From an uncultured Kordiimonas sp. (lineage in GTDB: Bacteria > Pseudomonadota > Alphaproteobacteria > Sphingomonadales > Kordiimonadaceae), in the NCBI GenBank assembly GCA_947503575.1, contig CANNDZ010000003.1, positions 159,100 through 223,099 on the forward strand: DNA of 64,000 nt. The letters run 5' to 3'. The notes beneath the pieces are model-generated. The model searched no databases and was not told where the DNA came from. It saw only the letters and a program-made list of their open reading frames with translations. The position numbers and the translations under genes are program-made. Position 1 is the first letter of the stretch, and the number at the start of each line of letters is the position of its first letter. Below are positions 5,344 through 14,568 of the stretch, piece by piece.

Positions 5344-6102
5344 TTGACACCGAACACCAAACACAGCACCGAGGAAGCGACTGGCCGCTATCACCATGGT
5401 GATTTGCGTAGCGCGCTTATTGATGCCTCAGTAGAGCTGGTTTCTACTACGGGCTCTGAGAGGTTTACGCTAAAAGATGCAAGCCGGATTGCAGGTGTCA
5501 GTGTAGCAGCCCCCTACCGCCATTTTTCTGACAAGTCCGAGTTGCTGCATGAGGTCACGGAAGTGGCTTTCAAAAAAATGTCTGATGACATGCTAAAAAC
5601 ATTGAAAGGCCAAGAACTTGGCACCATCGAGTCGATAACAGCACTGGGGCAAACCTATGTGCGGTTTGCCAGCGAAAACCAACAGTTATTCCGCTTGATG
5701 TGCCAAAATCATCAGGGTGGACCAGATGTCAATCTGGAGGAAATATTCAGACAACATGCTGCGGGGGAAAACGGCGCTGCCATCATTGACCTGCTGGATG
5801 TTAAAAACCATGATATCAGCACAAGCTTGTTGGCGCAGAACGCCCCCAATAATGGGATAGCCTGCTTTTCAATTCTGTTGAAAAGCGTTGCCACTTTTCT
5901 GGACCGAAACGGGCTGGATGTAAGAGAGACTCTGGCTATTGCAACGCCGATGTGGGCCATTGTGCACGGCACAGCATTTTTGTTAATTGATCACAAATTC
6001 AACAATTTAACGCCTAACATTAACACGGATGACATTGTTGAGCGGTCAACCCGTTACTTCCTTAACGGTCTTTTGCTTGAACATTCAGTAGACCCTGAAT
6101 AA
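5344..6102 (+). CDS. TetR/AcrR family regulator (YHHGDLR type, WHG-like C-terminus)
   Basis: YHHGDLRSALI, HTH AGVSVAAPYRHF, WAIVHG; divergent from the RND pair. Confidence 0.9.
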   Translation: MTPNTKHSTEEATGRYHHGDLRSALIDASVELVSTTGSERFTLKDASRIAGVSVAAPYRHFSDKSELLHEVTEVAFKKMSDDMLKTLKGQELGTIESITALGQTYVRFASENQQLFRLMCQNHQGGPDVNLEEIFRQHAAGENGAAIIDLLDVKNHDISTSLLAQNAPNNGIACFSILLKSVATFLDRNGLDVRETLAIATPMWAIVHGTAFLLIDHKFNNLTPNINTDDIVERSTRYFLNGLLLEHSVDPE

Positions 6103-6129
6103 AAAAGCCGCCCATTGTGAGGCGGCTTT
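6101..6129. terminator. Bidirectional intrinsic terminator
   Basis: AAAAAAGCCGCC-CATTGTGA-GGCGGCTTT. Confidence 0.8.
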
Positions 6130-6153
6130 CCATTTGGCTAGTTCTTGATGAAC

Positions 6154-7851
6154 TTAATGCGTTGTTGGCTTGGTAGCGCTTGGCTTGGCTTTGGGCGCTC
6201 GTTTCGCTTTTGCAGCCGTTGAAGCCGAAGCCTTAGTAGCCGCTTTTTTACCATTTACGGATTTAGCGCTTGCTGCCTTGCTTGGGGTCCGGGCAGATGC
6301 CGCCTTCGCGGGGGCTGCTTTGGCAGTGCCTGATTTAGCCCCGTTTGCTTTCGCTGGAGCTTTTGGGGTTTTGGGAGGGGCTTTTGTTGCACCTTCTGAA
6401 ACAGGCATTTCCTTACCCGCGGTCAAGGGGTCACCGGCTTTATCTGCCGCTGCCTGCAGTGCCGCGAATTCCTCGACGATAAGATCAGCGATATCCTGGA
6501 CATCTGGCACAGCAATTTTACAAGCGATCAATCCAAAATCGAGCCTGTCGACATAGCTTTGCAGGGTGATATTAAGTGCACATCCATGTGTCGCGATGGA
6601 AACAGGGAATTGCGCAACAACCTTGCTGCCAGCAAAATACATATATCTGCGTGGACCTGGCACATTGGATATGGTCACGTTGATCGGTGACGGCATCATG
6701 TTTACAAGGTCCGTCCGGCTTTGCATCTGCGCCATAGCAGACACAATAATAGGCGCACCAAAGAACACATAATCCTGTGGAATTACGTCCTTAACAGCGC
6801 CCAACTGCTTTTTGGATGCTTTTGTGCTTTCCTGTACAGACCGCAACCGCTTCATGGGGTCGGCAATATCGGTGCCCAGGCCGCAGGTCATACCTGTGAC
6901 CTGATTGGTATTGGCGGCATCGCCAAATTCCCGCAATGAAACCGGCACCGCCGCCACAAGCGAGTCTTCGGGCAATTCTTTGTGCCCATCTAGATAACGG
7001 CGCAAAGCACCGCCACAAATGGTGAGCACCACGTCATTCAGCGTGGAACCCGTTTTCTTCGCCAAAGCAATTGTTTCCGGCAACGACAGCGACTGAGCGC
7101 CGTAAGCACGTTGTTTCTGGATACGAACGTTAAACCGTGTTTTAGGCGCAGGCTTCAGGTTTTTGGCCAAGGCACTGCGGTCTTCAAAGGCGACTTTAGC
7201 GAGTGAGCCGACGGCTTTCACCATGTCTGGCACCTTTTTAACCACATCCACTTGCTGCTGCAGGAAACGACCATATGAACTACCCAGCAGCTCAAACATG
7301 CCTGGTTTTTCGGCCTGCAGCCGGATTTTATTCTTGGGTAAAGGCGGGCGCGGCACAGGTGCCCGGTCAGAAATAATATCCATAACGGCAATGCCGGCAC
7401 CACCGTCAACGCTGGCGTGATGGCTTTTTGTATAGAGCGCAAAACTGCCTTTTGGTAGCCCGAACTCTTCGTCTTCCAGGCCTTCGATGACATAAAATTG
7501 CCAAAGCGGCCGATCCCGATCCAGGGTCAGCGAATGCAGTCCCTGAATAATCATCCGAAGCTGTTCCACATTGCCTGGTGCAGGCAAGCTGGAGTGTTTG
7601 ATATGATAATCAAAGTCGATAGTGTCAGCGTTAACCCACACAGGATGATCGACATAAAAAGGGGTCGCCATCAACTTGCGGTGGAAAGAGGGAATCTCAT
7701 GCGCGCGCTCAGCGATCTGGGATTTCAGTGCTTCGTAGGGGTTGATACCTTCCTCCGGCGGTTCACATATCAACAAAGCAGAGACATGCATCGGTGTCTC
7801 GTCTGTTTCCATGTATAGAAAAGTAGCGTCCAAACCGGTCAATTTATGCAT
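6154..7851 (-). CDS. Wax ester synthase/diacylglycerol acyltransferase (WS/DGAT) with a Lys/Ala/Pro-rich C-terminal tail
   Basis: N-terminus LTGLDATFLYMET..PMHV, catalytic HHASVDG (HHxxxDG), NVTISNVPGP, LNITLQSY; ~90-aa basic low-complexity tail. Confidence 0.93.
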   Translation of the reverse strand: MHKLTGLDATFLYMETDETPMHVSALLICEPPEEGINPYEALKSQIAERAHEIPSFHRKLMATPFYVDHPVWVNADTIDFDYHIKHSSLPAPGNVEQLRMIIQGLHSLTLDRDRPLWQFYVIEGLEDEEFGLPKGSFALYTKSHHASVDGGAGIAVMDIISDRAPVPRPPLPKNKIRLQAEKPGMFELLGSSYGRFLQQQVDVVKKVPDMVKAVGSLAKVAFEDRSALAKNLKPAPKTRFNVRIQKQRAYGAQSLSLPETIALAKKTGSTLNDVVLTICGGALRRYLDGHKELPEDSLVAAVPVSLREFGDAANTNQVTGMTCGLGTDIADPMKRLRSVQESTKASKKQLGAVKDVIPQDYVFFGAPIIVSAMAQMQSRTDLVNMMPSPINVTISNVPGPRRYMYFAGSKVVAQFPVSIATHGCALNITLQSYVDRLDFGLIACKIAVPDVQDIADLIVEEFAALQAAADKAGDPLTAGKEMPVSEGATKAPPKTPKAPAKANGAKSGTAKAAPAKAASARTPSKAASAKSVNGKKAATKASASTAAKAKRAPKAKPSATKPTTH

Positions 7852-7970
7852 GATCGTCCCTTCCCACGTGCTGTATCGGTGCGGCTACCGCCGTTCATAG
7901 ATACTGCCTGATACCTAAGTTGCGCGTCTCCCCACGCAATTCCTTTATGCACGATTTTTTGCAGCAATAT

Positions 7971-7988
7971 TTAGAAATATCGCCCTAA
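7971..7988. promoter_or_regulatory. Possible degenerate copy of the phasin promoter box (TTAG-N10-CTAR)
   Basis: TTAGAAATATCGCCCTAA about 120 bp upstream of WS/DGAT; shares TTAGAAA and CTA spacing with the boxes at 13944 and 14348. Confidence 0.3.
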
Positions 7989-8023
7989 TCCAGCAAAAAG
8001 TATCGTTTCGGCCCTAAAAACGC

Positions 8024-8051
8024 AAAAAAGAGGGCACATAGGCGCCCTCTT
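8024..8051 (-). terminator. Intrinsic terminator after the hydrolase gene
   Basis: Minus strand AAGAGGGC-N8-GCCCTCTT followed by a T-run. Confidence 0.75.
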
Positions 8052-8079
8052 ACATCTAATCTATAGCCATTCAGATAGA

Positions 8080-8880
8080 TCAGGCCGGTACAGCCTCACC
8101 AAGCCCCGGTGTGCTGAAGAACGCTTTGCGGCTGCCTACATTAGTGAAGGGACGCCAAGTTCCTTCACGCTGAGCCAGTCTATCAGCAATAACATACAAA
8201 ACCGTAGGGTTGAAACCGAGGCCACAATGGCTTCCGGAAACCCGTATATTTTCGGTTTGCTTCTGCTTCACTTCACATACCGGCTTGTCCTGATGGCAAT
8301 TCTGCCACGCCACGATACCGTCTGTTTTGGTATAAATAGACGTTGTTGGCACCGGCGGTGCCTTGTGCATCATTGTTTCAATAGGCGGTTCATCAACAGA
8401 ATGGCCCGCCGCAAATTCATAAAAACGCCAGGCGTTTGAATTTTTGGGGTCGCCGGAATGCGGGCTGCCCAGTGAAATGACCAGCCGCGTTTGTTCGGGC
8501 CTCATTTTAGCGAGTTCGCGAGCGAAAATCCCGCCAAGGCTCCACCCCACAAGGCTAACTTTTTGCTGATGCGTCTCATAAACTTCGTCAATACGGTCCA
8601 GCATTCCTTCCAGAATACCGTCGCGCAGGCCAAGGTTACGGCCCAAACCCCAAGCGTAAGACGAATAACCGCGGTCAGTTAGAAAAGAACGAAGCGGCGC
8701 GGTAGACGAATCTGCCGCTCCTAACCCTGGCAACACCAAAACCGGGTGACCATCGCCGCGCGGCAATCGTTTTAGAAACGGTGTCGAAAGAGCCATTGTC
8801 CCAAGTTCCAGAAGGGCGCGCCCTTCCATCAACATCAAAAGGGGTGAAGGCGCTTTTACTTTACCAGAAAAATTGAACAC
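8080..8880 (-). CDS. Alpha/beta hydrolase (lipase/esterase, PGAP1-like)
   Basis: Oxyanion VLVLPGL, GWSLGG, DGIV, GSHCGLG; GTG start with AGGAG RBS. Confidence 0.88.
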   Translation of the reverse strand: MFNFSGKVKAPSPLLMLMEGRALLELGTMALSTPFLKRLPRGDGHPVLVLPGLGAADSSTAPLRSFLTDRGYSSYAWGLGRNLGLRDGILEGMLDRIDEVYETHQQKVSLVGWSLGGIFARELAKMRPEQTRLVISLGSPHSGDPKNSNAWRFYEFAAGHSVDEPPIETMMHKAPPVPTTSIYTKTDGIVAWQNCHQDKPVCEVKQKQTENIRVSGSHCGLGFNPTVLYVIADRLAQREGTWRPFTNVGSRKAFFSTPGLGEAVPA

Positions 8881-9089
8881 TCATGTCTCCTCAAAGCTTC
8901 CCTGACCGACCCTTGGGCTATCCAGCATGCAGGGTCATATTTCTGTCACAGAATGACAGCGGCATTTTGTCGCGTCAAACGAACATTCACATTTTTGCTT
9001 AAAAAAGAAACGATTGCACAATTTTTGAGCAATATTATGAAATTTTCTTACTTAAAGGAGGTAAGCAGACTGGCAAATGCGCTCAGGTC

Positions 9090-9731
9090 CTATTTTGACG
9101 TTTTTAACATTTTGTCGCGGAATTCAGTCAGCAAGGTCAGAAATTCATCTCCCCCGTCAACAACATAGGGCGTGAGCTGACTTATAAGACCATAAACACC
9201 ATTATGGATAGAAACCGGCGTTGATACGTCGCTGTCCAACAAAACCTGATACGTGGGCCAATAGGTAAGCTGCAGAGCAAATCGTTCCGCCATCTGGTCC
9301 GCTTCAATTTGGGAAATCGAAATAAAACCCGTTCGGTCAAGAGTGCCGATAATTGACGCCATGGTTGTCACTTTGTGCTGCACAAGACGGCGGAACCGGG
9401 ACTGCAAATCAGGATATCGTTCCAAAATGGATTGAAGATTACGGTAGAAAAACCGGAAATCTGCGATTTCTTCAAACAGGATATAAAAATACACCCAATT
9501 GTCCGATAGTTCCAAAGGCTTGTCGATCGGCGCCGTCAGCACCATCCGAAACTCTTCTTCAAAGTCGACAAAAAGCTGATGGATAATCGGGTCTTTGCCC
9601 TTGAAGTGATAATAGAGGTTGCCGGGGCTTATATCGAGCACGTTGGCAATGTCGACAGGCGTCACATTCTGCTCACCCTCTTCATTAAAGAGCTGCAGGC
9701 TATATTGCAAAATCCTGTCTTTGGTCTTCAT
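9090..9731 (-). CDS. phaD: TetR-family regulator, PhaD-like
   Basis: MKTKDRILQYSLQLFN...ISPGNLYYHFKGK closely resembles Pseudomonas PhaD (MKTRDRIL...ISPGNLYYHF, recalled from memory); located in the pha cluster. Confidence 0.75.
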   Translation of the reverse strand: MKTKDRILQYSLQLFNEEGEQNVTPVDIANVLDISPGNLYYHFKGKDPIIHQLFVDFEEEFRMVLTAPIDKPLELSDNWVYFYILFEEIADFRFFYRNLQSILERYPDLQSRFRRLVQHKVTTMASIIGTLDRTGFISISQIEADQMAERFALQLTYWPTYQVLLDSDVSTPVSIHNGVYGLISQLTPYVVDGGDEFLTLLTEFRDKMLKTSK

Positions 9732-9758
9732 GGCCCCTGCCCCCGTCGGCCTATTTCA

Positions 9759-10232
9759 TCACGACTTGGTAGCGGTTTTACTGGTTCGCCTGGCGGGTGC
9801 TTTTCCCGAAGTCTTACTGGCAGTCTTTACGGCAGCTTTTCTGGGGGCTGGCTTCGGCTTGGAAACAGCAGCCAAAATGGCGTCAATTTTTTGCTCCAGT
9901 ACGTCCAGTCGTTCTTCGATACGCTCGATGTTTTCCTGCTGGTCCGCCGTGGCTTCCGATATACCAAGCGCCGCTTTCATCCGCTCCATCCGGTCTTCGA
10001 CCTGAGCGCGCTGTTTTTCAGCAAATTCCGGCACGTAAGCTTTGGCAACCCCGGCAACTTTGCCTTCAAGTTCTTCGCCTTTGCCTACCAGGTCCTCAAA
10101 AATCTTCGTCGTCTCCCGACCCATTTTTGCATAAGCCTCGGTTGCATCCCCAACAGCACGACCATAGGCACCAATACCCGCCAACCAAATCTTGCGGGCA
10201 ATATCTTTGTCTTTTCTGGTTTTGTCGGTCAT
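9759..10232 (-). CDS. Phasin family protein (PhaF/PhaI-like) with coiled coil and short basic tail
   Basis: ARKIWLAGIGAY and FEDLVGKGEELE match the PhaI/PhaF granule-binding motif; ATG at 10232 has a GGAGG RBS (ORF track start 10244). Confidence 0.85.
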   Translation of the reverse strand: MTDKTRKDKDIARKIWLAGIGAYGRAVGDATEAYAKMGRETTKIFEDLVGKGEELEGKVAGVAKAYVPEFAEKQRAQVEDRMERMKAALGISEATADQQENIERIEERLDVLEQKIDAILAAVSKPKPAPRKAAVKTASKTSGKAPARRTSKTATKS

Positions 10233-10284
10233 TTCAGCCTCCACAAATCATGACCCGCCTTATGGCTTGTCATCACATCAATAT

Positions 10285-10339
10285 CACGTCGAGCACGGTC
10301 TATGTCGAACGCCGTTATGTCGAATACAGTTATGTCGAA
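10285..10339. repeat. Three 15-bp-period direct repeats (TATGTCGAA core) plus one degenerate copy
   Basis: TATGTCGAA at 10301, 10316 and 10331; CACGTCGAG at 10285. Confidence 0.85.
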
Positions 10340-11172
10340 TAGAGGGCATCCTGGGCGTAATCATCAGCGTGGTCGTCGAGGTACCGTGCGATAATCGGCA
10401 CAACTTGATGAGCACGAGAAACAGCAAACAAATGCCCGCCGCCCTTTACAATATTCAGGTCTGCACGGGGTATAGCCGCCTTCAAAATACGGGAATTGGC
10501 AAGCGGCACAATATTGTCCCGATCACCGGACATAACCAACGTCGGTTGTTTTAAAAACGGCAGCCTGTGCAAACTTGTCCACCCAGCCATTGCCATCAAT
10601 TGGTACAAGTAACCGCGCTTGGTCGGCGGGATAATACGGTTCTTGTGGCTAACGGCGGTTTTATCCGCTGCGTCCCCATACAGGGTTTCAAAGTTCTTGA
10701 GCATATAGTCTGTGTCAATATAACGGCGCGGGTTACCCATTTTACTCAGGGCACTGAAGTTACCCGGCACCATTGCCATACCGGCACTTGTTGCGAGCAA
10801 TACCAAGCTTCTAACCCGGTCCGGGTTACTAATGGCAAATTGCTGTGCGGCACCGCCGCCCCACGACACACCCATAACGTCCACATCAGCGTAGCCAAAC
10901 TCATCCAGAAGCTGATTTGACCATTTAACAATCGTAGAAGGCCTGTATGGCACGGTTGGTGCGGGGGACCCGCCAATGCCCGGCATGTCAAACACAATAA
11001 CATCCGAGCGTTCGCTCATCATTTCACCGAGCGGGGCAACCAGTTCAAGGTTGGCACCAATACCATTGAAAAACATAATCGGGCGTTTGTTACCCCCGGC
11101 GCGCCACCGGGCGGTGCGCAACGTCTGACGGCCTACCTTGACAAGGTTAACCTCTGGCTCGATAGCGGCCAT
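10330..11172 (-). CDS. phaZ: Intracellular PHA depolymerase (Pseudomonas PhaZ type)
   Basis: FNGIGANLEL, FDMPGIGGS, lipase box GVSWGG, GWTSLH, GDRD, GGHLF; ATG at 11172 has a GAGGAG RBS. Confidence 0.9.
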   Translation of the reverse strand: MAAIEPEVNLVKVGRQTLRTARWRAGGNKRPIMFFNGIGANLELVAPLGEMMSERSDVIVFDMPGIGGSPAPTVPYRPSTIVKWSNQLLDEFGYADVDVMGVSWGGGAAQQFAISNPDRVRSLVLLATSAGMAMVPGNFSALSKMGNPRRYIDTDYMLKNFETLYGDAADKTAVSHKNRIIPPTKRGYLYQLMAMAGWTSLHRLPFLKQPTLVMSGDRDNIVPLANSRILKAAIPRADLNIVKGGGHLFAVSRAHQVVPIIARYLDDHADDYAQDALYST

Positions 11173-11305
11173 ATATACTCTCTCCTCAATATGATGCGCC
11201 TTATGCTTTGTGCTGACTGCAGCACCGCGCATCTCTTCCGCCCCAAACGCTCCCAACGCCTGTAGCGGTCGCTTCCCTACTTTTATAGATAAGACTTTTT
11301 AGGAC

Positions 11306-12988
11306 TTATCCAAATACATATGTGCCCGGCGCATCGGCGAGCGGCTTGTATTTCGTGTTACCAAGCCGGTTTGGTGCCGCTTTTTCCTTGCCGGACCTCT
11401 CCTTCAGCCACCCGGACCAAGGCGTCCACCAGGAACCATCCTTCAACTCCGCGCCCGCCATCCAGTCGTCTGCGCTGCCGCCCATACCGTCCGGATTATG
11501 AAAATATTTCGCTTTCGGATTGCCGGGTGGGTTCAGCAGAGACTGGATATGCCCGCTATTGGACACGAAGAATTCGTTTTTACCGCCAAGCAGCTTGGAT
11601 GTGCGGAAACAGGCGCGCCACGGCGTTATATGGTCTGTAACCCCAGCAACAATAAAGCTATCGTGCGTTACCTGCCCCAAATCAAGCTTGTGCCCTTTGA
11701 AGTCCACAGTACCAGGGTTGGCAAACGGTGCCGTCATGTAGCTATCCAGAAAATCTGAATGCAAACCTGCAGGCAAATTCGTAGTATCATTGTTCCAGAA
11801 CAAAATATCAAATGCGGGCGGCGCATCTCCCAGCAGGTAATTGTTGACCACATAATTCCAGATCAGATCGTTCGGGCGCATCCAGGCAAAAGTCCGCGAC
11901 AGATCGTCCCCCGACAAAATACCCTTTTGCGCCGAGCGCGCGCGCGCCAGTTCAAGCGTTTCTTCCGACACAAGCGCCCCGACCTCGCTGTCTTCCTGGC
12001 GTGGGTCAAGCACGCATACCTGGAACGTTGATGAGTTTACGCGGTCGTCGCCCATCGCCGCCAAATGGCTCAAGAGCGTTGCAACCGTTATGCCCCCCGA
12101 ACAGGCACCGGAGACGTTAATTTTTTTGGACCGGGTAACTTTCATGACGGCGTCCATCGCTTCGACAACCGCATCAATGTATGTTTCCAGATGCCAGTCT
12201 GCCTGCTCTACGCCGGGGTTGCGCCAGCTTATGGCGAACAGCTGTATGCCTTGCGACAACAAAAACCGGAACAGGCTTTTGTCAGGCGTAAGATCAGACG
12301 CGTAAAATTTGTTGATCTGCGGCGGGATGATCATCAGCGGAATTTCATGCACTTTATCTGTCGTCGGCGTGTATTGGATCACTTCTAGCACTTCGCTGCG
12401 GAAAACTACCGAGCCTGGTGTTGTGGCCAGGTTTTCACCAACCTTGAACGGCCTGCTGTCGACCTGAGATGGGATGCCGATCCCGTTGACCATGTCATTA
12501 TAGGCGTTTTTCAGGCCGGCGATAATGGACATACCCCCCGTTTCATAGAGGCGCTTCATTGCCGCTGGGTTGCCGATCAGCGAGTTGGTGGGCGCAAGCG
12601 CATCTGTCACAACATCAAGGATGAAATGGGCACGGGCGCGGTCCATCTCATCAATTTCAGCTTCACTCAGCCAGTTATTCAGGTTTTCCTTCATTGCCAT
12701 CCAAGACTGCATACCCCTGCGGTACAAAGGGTTGAAGGCCCACGCGCGGTCTTGAAAGCGGCGATCTTTCGCATGGGGAGCATATTCGCTGTCCCCTTTC
12801 ACGATGTCGACCATATCCTTACCGTAGTTCAGGAAATGCTGACCAAATGTGGCTGGATTGGTTGCGGCTTGCTTGAGAACAACGCCTAATGACTTCACAA
12901 GCTCTGACCGGTGAACGCCAACAATTGGGCTGAAGGCCGTTGTTGCTTCTGCGGCGCGCTCGCCGACGGATTTTTTGGACCGTGCCAT
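11306..12988 (-). CDS. phaC: Class II poly(3-hydroxyalkanoate) synthase
   Basis: 560 aa, PPQINKFY, catalytic GACSGG (C296), WMRPNDLIWNY, DHITPW, SGHIQS, APGTYV. Confidence 0.95.
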   Translation of the reverse strand: MARSKKSVGERAAEATTAFSPIVGVHRSELVKSLGVVLKQAATNPATFGQHFLNYGKDMVDIVKGDSEYAPHAKDRRFQDRAWAFNPLYRRGMQSWMAMKENLNNWLSEAEIDEMDRARAHFILDVVTDALAPTNSLIGNPAAMKRLYETGGMSIIAGLKNAYNDMVNGIGIPSQVDSRPFKVGENLATTPGSVVFRSEVLEVIQYTPTTDKVHEIPLMIIPPQINKFYASDLTPDKSLFRFLLSQGIQLFAISWRNPGVEQADWHLETYIDAVVEAMDAVMKVTRSKKINVSGACSGGITVATLLSHLAAMGDDRVNSSTFQVCVLDPRQEDSEVGALVSEETLELARARSAQKGILSGDDLSRTFAWMRPNDLIWNYVVNNYLLGDAPPAFDILFWNNDTTNLPAGLHSDFLDSYMTAPFANPGTVDFKGHKLDLGQVTHDSFIVAGVTDHITPWRACFRTSKLLGGKNEFFVSNSGHIQSLLNPPGNPKAKYFHNPDGMGGSADDWMAGAELKDGSWWTPWSGWLKERSGKEKAAPNRLGNTKYKPLADAPGTYVFG

Positions 12989-13072
12989 ACGTATTCCCTA
13001 TTCCTGAAAGACGCAGATGGCGCCTCATGTACTTCCTGCGCCATTGTGTCGAAGAAAAATCGGTTTCGCTAG

Positions 13073-13100
13073 AAAAAAACAAAGCGACCGAGGTCGCTTT
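13073..13100 (-). terminator. Intrinsic terminator downstream of the PhaF-like gene
   Basis: Minus strand AAAGCGACC-TC-GGTCGCTTT followed by GTTTTTTT. Confidence 0.8.
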
Positions 13101-13143
13101 GAGTTTCTGCCAGGTACAAAGCCCACGGCAGAATAGAGATAAT

Positions 13144-13193
13144 GGCTGACAGACCTACTCAGGGGAGGGGGGAAGGGACTAAGCCTGTCAGCC
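13144..13193 (-). ncRNA. Candidate 3'UTR RNA hairpin with a C-rich (anti-SD-like) loop
   Basis: Minus strand GGCTGACAGGCTTA / TAGGTCTGTCAGCC 14-bp stem (includes two G-U pairs) around the loop GTCCCTTCCCCCCTCCCCTGAG. Confidence 0.35.
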
Positions 13194-13226
13194 TATTAGA
13201 CCCGAAGGACTAATAATTCTTTTTAC

Positions 13227-13844
13227 TTATGACTTTACGTCAGTTTTTGCTTCAACTGCAGCAGCTTTAGGGTCTACTTTCGGCGCTGCCGCTTTTGGCG
13301 CAGCTGCTTTAGGAGCGGCCGCTTTTGGAGCAACAGCTTTCTTCGGCGCAGGTGCAGCCTTTTTAACCGCTGGCTTTGCGACCGCTTTCTTCGCAACTAC
13401 TTTTTTAGCAGCAGCTTTTTTCACAGCAGGTTTTGCAGCTGGTTTAGACGTATTCACTTTCCGGCTCAGCGCATTTACTGTTTTCGTCAGCTTTGCAACT
13501 TCGGCAGACAGCTCTTCCACACGGTTGTTTCCACCAGCGCGGTTAAACACTTTGTTGCCAGCTTCTGAAACTTTTTCGCTTACTTCGTTGAAGCGTGCAG
13601 TCACGTCGGTAACGCGAGGCTCTACGTAACCGCGAACTTTTTCGATGTTACCTTGGGCCATGCCTTCAACTTCTTCGCCTTTTTGAACCAGGTCTTCAAC
13701 CAGTTCATCGCGACCGTTCATAAGCTTGTTCACGCCTTCTTGGGCGAAATCAAAAGCTGATTTGTGAGCGCCGAGCCATGCAAGGTAACCCTGACGGTAA
13801 GCGCGGACGACTTTAGAGTTTTGAATGTTGTCCATAAGTGCCAT
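13227..13844 (-). CDS. Phasin-like protein with histone H1-like C-terminal tail (PhaF architecture)
   Basis: N-terminal RQGYLAWLGAHK...EDLVQKGEEVE, heptad RVEELSAEVAKLTKTVNAL, then a KPAAK/AKKAV/PKAAA repeat tail; ATG at 13844 with AAGGA RBS. Confidence 0.75.
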   Translation of the reverse strand: MALMDNIQNSKVVRAYRQGYLAWLGAHKSAFDFAQEGVNKLMNGRDELVEDLVQKGEEVEGMAQGNIEKVRGYVEPRVTDVTARFNEVSEKVSEAGNKVFNRAGGNNRVEELSAEVAKLTKTVNALSRKVNTSKPAAKPAVKKAAAKKVVAKKAVAKPAVKKAAPAPKKAVAPKAAAPKAAAPKAAAPKVDPKAAAVEAKTDVKS

Positions 13845-13927
13845 GATCAATTCCTTATCAAATATAATCGTGTTTTGCGTGAGCTTGACGCTTTTGCTTG
13901 TGCGCGACGCTCGTTTATCCTGAGATC

Positions 13928-13964
13928 AAAGTAGCGGGGAAAATTAGAAAGCGCATACTAGAGC
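13928..13964 (-). promoter_or_regulatory. Promoter with the conserved 21-bp box
   Basis: TTAGAAAGCGCATACTAGAGC at 13944-13964; minus strand ATGCGC-17bp-TACTTT. Confidence 0.6.
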
Positions 13965-14003
13965 GTTATTTTCCCCGATACCTTTTGTTGGTCGGGTGTC
14001 TGA

Positions 14004-14234
14004 TTACTCAGCTGTGCGACCGAAAAAACCGTTCACACGCTCACGAGCGCCGGTTTCAACCGCTTCACCTTTTTGAACCAGATCTTCGATCAATTCATCG
14101 CGACCGTTGATCAGCTTGTTCATGTTATCTTGCGCAAGCTCGAAAGCCGCTTTGTGAGCGCCGAGCCACGCCAAGTAGCCCTGACGGTAAGAGCGAACAA
14201 CCTGTGAGTTCTGAATGTCTTCCAAAATAGCCAT
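14004..14234 (-). CDS. Short phasin-like protein (76 aa), paralog of the N-terminal domain of 13227..13844
   Basis: YRQGYLAWLGAHK and NGRDEL(I/V)EDLVQKGE shared with the downstream paralog; AAGGA RBS. Confidence 0.75.
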   Translation of the reverse strand: MAILEDIQNSQVVRSYRQGYLAWLGAHKAAFELAQDNMNKLINGRDELIEDLVQKGEAVETGARERVNGFFGRTAE

Positions 14235-14331
14235 GATATAGTCCTTTCAATCGTCTCTTTGTTTTCAATGTAACCAACTGACTGTGTCGATTTGACTTGG
14301 TGCGCCGGTTGGTTCGTTAACCTTGAGATGG

Positions 14332-14368
14332 AATGTAAGGAAAAACTTTAGAAAGCGCATACTAGAGC
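14332..14368 (-). promoter_or_regulatory. Promoter with the identical 21-bp box
   Basis: TTAGAAAGCGCATACTAGAGC at 14348-14368; minus strand ATGCGC-17bp-TACATT. Confidence 0.6.
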
Positions 14369-14568
14369 AGAATTATTTATAAAATATAATTATTTCAGAT
14401 ACTTGCGGAATTTTACTGGCTTGTTCCATGTTTCTATCTGGGCGATACCCTCTCAAAACCGGTCAGATGACCAGCACCGGAGGCACCAATTCAAACGAAG
14501 GTTTACAGGAAAGCGCTTTGACATCGAAAGGCGGGTTGCTAGGTTTTCAATCGCTTGTCGGGCAAGGC

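Follow-up and report, generated by a model that had tools for sequence, protein, structure and literature searches.

A Kordiimonas locus joining a class II-like polyhydroxyalkanoate cluster to a neutral-lipid synthase and a lipase-like hydrolase

Do the genes for two different carbon stores, polyhydroxyalkanoate (PHA) and neutral lipid, belong together when they lie end to end on one chromosome? The question is raised by a locus at positions 6154-14234 on the minus strand of a 64,000-nucleotide stretch of DNA from an uncultured Kordiimonas sp. (Alphaproteobacteria; GenBank assembly GCA_947503575.1, contig CANNDZ010000003.1, positions 159,100 to 223,099), hereafter the window, where a class II-like pha cluster is followed by genes for a lipase-like hydrolase and a wax ester synthase/diacylglycerol acyltransferase (WS/DGAT). 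A first-pass annotation of the sequence had read this as one hybrid locus that builds, coats, positions and mobilises both PHA granules and wax ester or triacylglycerol bodies. We consider it probable (about 0.62) that a Kordiimonas lineage here carries a composite locus for carbon storage, in which two modules of older origin adjoin each other and are switched together by a PhaD-like TetR regulator.

The locus held eight co-directional open reading frames (ORFs), with the outer ends first proposed for it. ORF calls and profile searches, the latter for all eight identities, bore out the proposed order: short phasin, PhaF-like phasin, phaC, phaZ, a further phasin, a phaD-like TetR gene, hydrolase and WS/DGAT (Table 1). 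The 3.6-Mb Kordiimonas genome contained a single PhaC_N match and a single WS/DGAT match, both within this locus, and the flanking genes were functionally unrelated: a resistance-nodulation-division (RND) efflux operon together with its TetR gene at one end, and at the opposite end the gene for a tricorn-type S41 protease. We surveyed 31 same-genus genomes and one sister genus, searching 17-kb regions with twelve local proteins by tblastn. A WS/DGAT ortholog and a class II-like PhaC ortholog occurred together in 13 genomes besides the window's own, and the complete string was syntenic in G003, G004, G010, G012, G018, G022, G024, G027, G029, G030, G031 and the sister genus (G034), at 55-95% identity and with shared flanks in most loci on long enough contigs; in the fragmented assemblies G022 and G031 the order continued across contig ends. 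The eight-gene arrangement is far beyond chance: its order recurs in 12-13 other genomes with protein identities of 70-95%. The first-pass annotation had let its joint-locus proposal depend on whether the WS/DGAT and hydrolase genes stay with the pha genes in relatives; they do so in about 12 Kordiimonas-clade genomes and the sister genus, and the proposal survived this comparison.

Elsewhere the two halves of the locus were found apart. Tepidicaulis marinus encoded a phasin, PhaC, PhaZ, a PF05597 phasin and a PF13972 TetR, with no WS/DGAT in the neighbourhood. Robiginitomaculum had a rearranged version of the pha module, with the TetR gene on the opposite strand and the phasin gene about 4 kb upstream, again with no WS/DGAT nearby, and one Kordiimonas genome (G007) carried phaF-phaC-phaZ-phasin-phaD in a different context and without hydrolase or WS/DGAT genes. 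The hydrolase family comprised 591 confirmed genomic loci; in 40 of the best 80 of these a WS/DGAT lay within about 10 kb of the hydrolase, directly adjacent in most. Such hydrolase-WS/DGAT pairs were found in Alpha- and Betaproteobacteria, including Reyranella, Rhizobacter, Rubrivivax and Robiginitomaculum, mostly with no pha genes nearby, and distant paralogous pairs were present within Kordiimonas genomes (WS/DGAT 30-34%, hydrolase 45-50% identity). Because each module occurs alone in other genomes, the Kordiimonas locus is a juxtaposition of two older, separable units.

Separability also allows that the modules are neighbours by descent only, the hydrolase-WS/DGAT pair having landed beside the pha cluster in the ancestor of a subclade, with independent regulation and separate inclusions ever since. 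In family f7, class II-like phaC-phaZ lay more than 2 Mb from the WS/DGAT-hydrolase pair, and the species that bear the locus may be one subclade: 17 of the 18 other same-genus genomes lacked both the PhaC ortholog and WS/DGAT, and since the species without the locus that were searched also lacked an ortholog of the flanking tricorn-type protease, this pattern may mark a subclade and not the gain or loss of a unit. An empty-site comparison accordingly did not show a clean insertion or deletion. These points count against functional coupling. A second, independent arrangement of the same genes in Mesorhizobium argues in the other direction, that the linkage was selected and is not accidental. 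There, in other Hyphomicrobiales and in further metagenome-assembled genomes (MAGs), a class II-like phaC-phaZ adjoined the same pair divergently (Mesorhizobium L058, L081 and L123; a Hyphomicrobiales MAG, L122; other MAGs, L099, L105 and L119), with phaC 46-49% and phaZ 41-46% identical by tblastn; L119 held just a phaC fragment at a contig end, and in L105 the phaC and WS/DGAT tblastn matches were about 165 bp apart. In Mesorhizobium loti LU (L081 3258-10756), an operon of acyl-coenzyme A (acyl-CoA) synthetase, MaoC/PhaJ-like hydratase, PhaC and PhaZ genes was divergent from WS/DGAT and hydrolase, which we read as a predicted fatty-acid-to-PHA route beside a neutral-lipid synthase. A further setting of the hydrolase was seen in Bradyrhizobium centrosematis (L063 4548-10750) and about 30 Bradyrhizobium/Xanthobacteraceae loci, where a homologue without an adjacent WS/DGAT stood at a fixed distance from a 531-aa protein (partial PhaC_N plus alpha/beta-hydrolase), a PhaZ-like hydrolase, GNAT and DUF445; this may be another storage-related neighbourhood.

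Descent without coupling is also consistent with how the locus appears to be transcribed. We aligned the intergenic regions of 12 loci for terminators, promoters and operator-like boxes. Intrinsic terminators with a hairpin and U-run recurred 3' of the PhaF-like gene and between the hydrolase and WS/DGAT genes, and the stems of the latter varied in sequence among loci (-11 to -19 kcal/mol). Upstream of the hydrolase gene a sigma-70-type promoter was predicted, a conserved predicted promoter region preceded WS/DGAT, and the gaps between phaC, phaZ, the third phasin gene and phaD were short. From these features the locus is predicted to form at least five transcription units, namely the short phasin, the PhaF-like gene, phaC-phaZ-phasin-phaD, the hydrolase and WS/DGAT. 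The conserved terminators and separate promoters rule out a single operon for all eight genes, co-directional though they are.

Regulation in common could still act through a promoter element, and here the evidence speaks against purely inherited neighbourhood. Four copies of a 6-8-6 inverted repeat (two 6-bp half-sites around an 8-bp spacer) were found here, one ahead of each PhaF-type gene, one ahead of WS/DGAT and one in the interval from phaF to phaC. The dyads may be read as ATTAGT-N8-TCTAAT for the PhaF-type promoter boxes and TTTAGG-N8-TCTAAA for the WS/DGAT promoter. Both PhaF-type promoters carried the box (C/T)TAGTATGCGCTTTCTAA, the copy at 14348 being part of an exact 21-nt repeat of 13944-13964, and its 17-nt core was near-invariant in 21 aligned phasin promoters from 12 genomes, where one G/C position varied and one copy had A for T. 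The identical 17-mer preceded phasin genes of Robiginitomaculum (L134 5523), and a version with one change was found in T. marinus (L135 9157). In the WS/DGAT promoter, the dyad core TTAGGGCG(A/C)(A/T)ATTTCTAA was kept in 10 of the 11 loci that retain the spacer; L032 has TTAGTAAG. The dyad at 13195-13214 shares its half-sites with the relatives' PhaF promoter box and could be either a DNA operator or an RNA hairpin. Genome-wide, the pattern TAG-N7-TTTCTAA was observed five times against 5.3 expected; three copies were promoter-placed, all of them in this locus, and two were inside ORFs. A genome-wide box search for a wider regulon returned other strict matches only inside ORFs or beside unrelated genes. 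A related, conserved dyad that phasin and WS/DGAT promoters have and no other promoter of the genome does, together with the Hyphomicrobiales loci, makes neighbourhood by descent only an unlikely explanation in our estimate.

As an observation on the box itself, the form TAGTATGCG(C/G)TTTCTA(A/G) spans different alphaproteobacterial orders and is unusually strict for a regulator site. Upstream of a hydrolase-WS/DGAT pair in another genome (L034 ~5400-5440, G049), two tandem copies of CAGTATTTCTTAA resembled the right half of the Kordiimonas box.

The operators of PhaD in Pseudomonas putida consist of 6-bp inverted half-sites with 8-bp spacing, and this activator is believed to respond to a CoA intermediate of beta-oxidation (PMC7590123). 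The geometry of the Kordiimonas boxes matches these operators, and we infer that the TetR protein of the locus is the one that pairs with them. Its gene lies downstream of phaZ and the third phasin gene, and PF13972-type TetR genes also lay near phaC in Tepidicaulis and Robiginitomaculum. The shared control-site motif suggests that both carbon stores would be managed together. The same distribution of boxes could, however, mean that neutral-lipid bodies depend on the phasins and on the PhaD-like regulator to an equal or greater degree than PHA does. The PF05597 phasins would then coat droplets of triacylglycerol or wax ester, and PhaC would be a client of second rank. The phasin promoters have the box in common with that of WS/DGAT, the phaC promoter shows no clear copy of it, and three phasin genes accompany a single synthase. 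This we regard as very improbable, because phasin-phaC-phaZ-phasin-phaD and the phasin box are kept in Tepidicaulis, and a phasin, its box and a PhaD-like TetR gene are found near phaC-phaZ in Robiginitomaculum, in each case with no WS/DGAT in the neighbourhood, an arrangement from which it follows that the ancestral client of the phasins was PHA.

In the pha module, the 76-aa phasin gene and the 5' part of the PhaF-like gene formed a 192-nt direct repeat, 80% identical, and the short ORF was kept in eight relatives at 66-95% identity; its own profile match was a weak, phasin-related one in NCBIfam, and its link to PF05597 came through paralogy with the 207-aa protein. That protein scored 21.7 bits for PF05597, under the gathering score of 28.8, and was homologous to the 161-aa phasin (BLASTP E=7e-10). 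By sequence it possesses the AAKP-type C-terminal tail resembling histone H1 that typifies PhaF: residues 136-192 were an uninterrupted 57-residue A/K/P/V run with weak HC2 and H1-like matches. PhaC carried its lipase-box-like catalytic motif (G-X-C-X-G) as GACSG at residues 294-298. Its homologues were alphaproteobacterial only among the best 120 matches, which included orthologs in Kordiimonas aquimaris and Kordiimonas sp. SCSIO 12610 with 84-87% identity; at about 60% identity the relatives were marine Alphaproteobacteria, mostly labelled 'alpha/beta fold hydrolase'. Records such as P0004, P0012 and P0036 bear that NCBI name only, and a few older ones read 'class II poly(R)-hydroxyalkanoic acid synthase'; the class II-like PhaC clade is under-annotated. 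The start of PhaZ was uncertain, either TTG at 11256 or ATG at 11172, and the alignments of relatives begin at residues 8 to 34. In one relative (L027 8808-9649, G012) the phaZ ortholog aligned in two overlapping pieces, which suggests a frameshift or an assembly error. The presumed product of the module is medium-chain PHA.

In the second module, TIGR02946 gave WS/DGAT 435.7 bits against a cut-off of 309.95, both domains (PF03007 and PF06974) were above their cut-offs, and the HHxxxDG motif was present as HHASVDG at residues 144-150. The core (residues 3-477) aligned over its full length with the solved structures 6chj and 7nxg at E about 1e-63. Profile matches of the hydrolase were weak and spread over lipase, PGAP1 and palmitoyl-thioesterase families, and its catalytic triad (Ser114, Asp187, His218) was invariant across 44 sequences. 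An AlphaFold (AF2) model with a mean predicted local distance difference test (pLDDT) score of 88.5 had as nearest folds the minimal lipases Lip_vut1 and Bacillus subtilis LipA (6nkc, 1i6w) and CalB-type enzymes, with TM-scores of just about 0.5 and weak sequence matches to solved structures. On the simplest reading, the hydrolase would be the mobilising lipase for neutral lipid, in parallel to PhaZ beside PhaC.

A convincing fatty acyl-CoA reductase was not found in the genome with PF07993, for which the best match was a partial, 54-bit one in an ORF of about 340 aa from a model that is non-specific and matched 14 of 14 control genomes; reductases of the short-chain dehydrogenase/reductase (SDR) type, or alcohols derived from alkanes, might still serve a wax-ester pathway. 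Because no convincing reductase was detected, triacylglycerol, or wax esters built on alcohols of alkane origin, is as likely a product as classical wax esters, and triacylglycerol may be the likelier. The missing reductase could also be taken to mean that WS/DGAT and the hydrolase act on PHA-pathway substrates and not on storage lipid, by transferring acyl groups to 3-hydroxyacyl units or to the ends of PHA chains, or by working as a thioesterase or transacylase pair, as the weak palmitoyl-thioesterase match and the position of the pair near PhaC here and in Mesorhizobium would allow. Elsewhere, however, the pair mostly has no PhaC nearby, the entire WS/DGAT core aligns with characterised wax-ester/DGAT enzymes and has HHxxxDG intact, and the hydrolase fold is nearest to true lipases, so this explanation seems to us scarcely credible, and we retain a neutral-lipid store as the likely function of the second module.

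The WS/DGAT of the window ended in a tail (residues 476-565) of 90 aa with 27 Ala, 18 Lys and 10 Pro and a net charge of +18. Every Kordiimonas ortholog of the enzyme had such a tail, of variable length. Complete 3' ends were available for 56 WS/DGATs linked to the hydrolase; 41 had a tail of 20 aa or longer, and in 38 of these 41 the net charge was +5 or more. A search of open-access papers found no description of basic-tailed WS/DGATs. The basic A/K/P tails of the PhaF-like protein, the third phasin and WS/DGAT probably bind a polyanion, for which nucleoid DNA is the best precedent.

Taken together, these results are consistent with the following scheme. The first module is the form that the class II pha cluster takes in Alphaproteobacteria, and most likely it serves to synthesise PHA from (R)-3-hydroxyacyl-CoA and to coat, tether and depolymerise it. 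In the second, WS/DGAT would esterify acyl-CoA to diacylglycerol or fatty alcohol, with the Ser-Asp-His hydrolase as its likely mobilising partner. A shared acyl-CoA pool would feed both modules, and at high acyl-CoA flux the PhaD-like TetR of the locus might switch the coat proteins and the neutral-lipid synthase together. With their basic tails on a polyanion, both storage processes would be brought to one cellular surface; common positioning and mixed PHA/neutral-lipid inclusions are speculation on our part. A stronger version, in which the PhaD-like regulator runs one acyl-CoA-responsive regulon, tailed WS/DGAT and PhaF-like phasins sit on one nucleoid scaffold, inclusions are hybrid or coupled, and the tails are widespread DNA anchors for droplet synthesis in Alpha- and Betaproteobacteria, strikes us as distinctly doubtful.

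Several results weigh against the composite, co-regulated locus that we favour. At the hydrolase and phaC promoters no promoter-placed, clean copy of the box was seen; its pattern was in part drawn up with the sites already in view; and the box was equated with the PhaD operator on geometry only. The class assignment of PhaC rests on hidden Markov model (HMM) scores, in which the class II model (TIGR01839) reached 701 bits and the class I model 503, the former missing the curated class II cut-off of 855.4, and PhaZ fell just below the equivalog cut-off of TIGR02240 (242.9 against 250.6 bits). By these scores PhaC appears closer to class II yet outside the trusted set, and the class II cluster first named for this DNA, while best matched by the class II model, is accurately labelled class II-like. 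As to the joint PHA and neutral-lipid locus proposed at the outset, functional coupling is supported by synteny, recurrence in Hyphomicrobiales and the shared dyad, whereas a single unit is not, given separable modules with separate promoters. Co-inheritance, recurrence in another lineage and the shared promoter element support, as far as genome comparison goes, a functionally coupled storage locus.

Table 1. Genes and predicted control elements of the storage locus (window coordinates).
Feature	Position	Strand	Remarks
WS/DGAT, 565 aa	6154..7851	-	core residues 1-475; basic tail residues 476-565 encoded at 6154-6426
Operator-like dyad TTTAGG-GCGATATT-TCTAAA	7970..7989	-	WS/DGAT promoter region
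Intrinsic terminator between hydrolase and WS/DGAT	8023..8051	-	hairpin and U-run in 10/12 loci
Lipase-like alpha/beta hydrolase, 266 aa	8080..8880	-	GWSLG; Ser114-Asp187-His218
Hydrolase promoter, predicted sigma-70-type, TTGACG-N17-CATTCT	8950..8978	-	phylogenetic footprint, 11 loci
PhaD-like TetR regulator	9090..9731	-	TetR_N and PF13972 C-domain
Third phasin, 161 aa	9759..10244	-	PF05597 45.9 bits, above cut-off 28.8; short basic K/A/P/T/S tail
PhaZ-type intracellular PHA depolymerase	10330..11256	-	GVSWG at residues 129-133
PhaC, class II-like PHA synthase, 560 aa	11306..12988	-	PhaC_N 196 bits
Intrinsic terminator 3' of PhaF-like gene	13073..13101	-	hairpin and U-run, same aligned position in 9/12 loci
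Conserved 12-bp stem GGCTGACAGGCY / RGNCTGTCAGCC (also written GGCTGACAGGCC / GGCCTGTCAGCC)	13144..13193	-	phaF 3' region; C-rich loop of ~28 nt
Dyad or hairpin ATTAGTCC-TTCG-GGTCTAAT, ATTAGT-N8-TCTAAT	13195..13214	-	between phaF and phaC
PhaF-like phasin, 207 aa	13227..13850	-	phasin-like domain at the N-terminus, then a coiled-coil segment and a histone-H1-like A/K/P/V tail
Operator-like box, second copy	13944..13961	-	upstream of PhaF-like gene
Short PhaI-like phasin, 76 aa	14004..14234	-	equals N-terminal domain of PhaF-like paralog only
Operator-like box CTAGTATGCGCTTTCTAA, 6-8-6 dyad TCTAGT-N8-TCTAAA	14348..14365	-	upstream of short phasin gene

Two further hairpin-type elements were noted. 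The 12-bp stem 3' of phaF was present in nine Kordiimonas-clade loci with a consensus fold of -26 kcal/mol and two compensatory pairs; an Rfam scan of 5900-14500 gave no meaningful match, this stem included. PhaF of Pseudomonas aeruginosa is presented in a recent report as an RNA-binding translation activator (PMC12818456). In the 5' leader of the hydrolase gene (~8900-8945, minus strand), between promoter and start codon, the motif AAATGTGACCGGGGAGGGTCC, a small hairpin (GACC...GGTC), is kept in nearly all relatives, and the window's own copy is divergent.

The Kordiimonas locus and its Mesorhizobium counterpart offer a compact natural system for studying how acyl-CoA is partitioned between two stores. 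With a single PhaC, a single WS/DGAT, operator-like sites that are defined and a regulator that is a candidate for controlling both, partitioning could be tested by simple knockouts. The analysis also shows where annotation falls short. One case is the class II-like PHA cluster, which is common in marine Alphaproteobacteria; the other is the combination of lipase-like partner and H1-like basic tail by which a large WS/DGAT clade is marked, and which suggests a testable mechanism of droplet positioning. Searches of open-access papers found nothing relevant on a joint pha and WS/DGAT cluster or on storage lipids of Kordiimonas.

Among known systems, the pha cluster of P. putida is like that of Kordiimonas in having a synthase that scores best on the class II model, a TIGR02240-type PhaZ after phaC, a TetR gene downstream, phasins of both PhaF type (H1-tailed) and PhaI type (short), and 6-8-6 dyads as described for PhaD operators. 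It is organised as phaC1-phaZ-phaC2-phaD with divergent phaI-phaF, a layout (two phaC, divergent phaI-phaF) not seen in Kordiimonas, where there is one phaC, a phasin gene takes the place of phaC2, and the upstream phasin genes run in the same direction as phaC and have separate promoters. Unlike that of P. putida, the Kordiimonas cluster has an alphaproteobacterial host and carries the lipase-like hydrolase and WS/DGAT genes as an appendage. AtfA of Acinetobacter baylyi ADP1 (7nxg) and Ma2 of Marinobacter (6chj) resemble the Kordiimonas WS/DGAT in their core and HHxxxDG motif; these enzymes of 455-463 aa have no tail, whereas the Kordiimonas protein has a 90-residue A/K/P/S/T tail, a conserved lipase-like partner gene and linkage to a pha cluster.

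Tails of this composition have precedents on structural proteins. PhaM of Ralstonia eutropha is a nucleoid-tethering granule protein with a Lys/Ala/Pro-rich tail like histone H1. The lipid-droplet proteins TadA and MLDS of Rhodococcus bind heparin or DNA through basic regions that link neutral-lipid bodies to polyanions or the nucleoid; they belong to unrelated families, with the basic region on a structural protein and not on the synthase, and have no pha linkage. PhaF of P. putida has a lysine/alanine/proline-rich, H1-like tail that functions in nucleoid tethering (PMC7590123). In PhaF and PhaM the tail is on a granule protein, whereas in Kordiimonas a tail of similar sequence is also placed directly on the neutral-lipid synthase.

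Bacteria that store both a polyester and a neutral lipid are known, and in the dual-storage systems known to us the genes for the two are unlinked. What is new in Kordiimonas relative to known systems is a class II-like alphaproteobacterial pha cluster joined to a WS/DGAT-lipase module whose synthase bears an H1-like tail.

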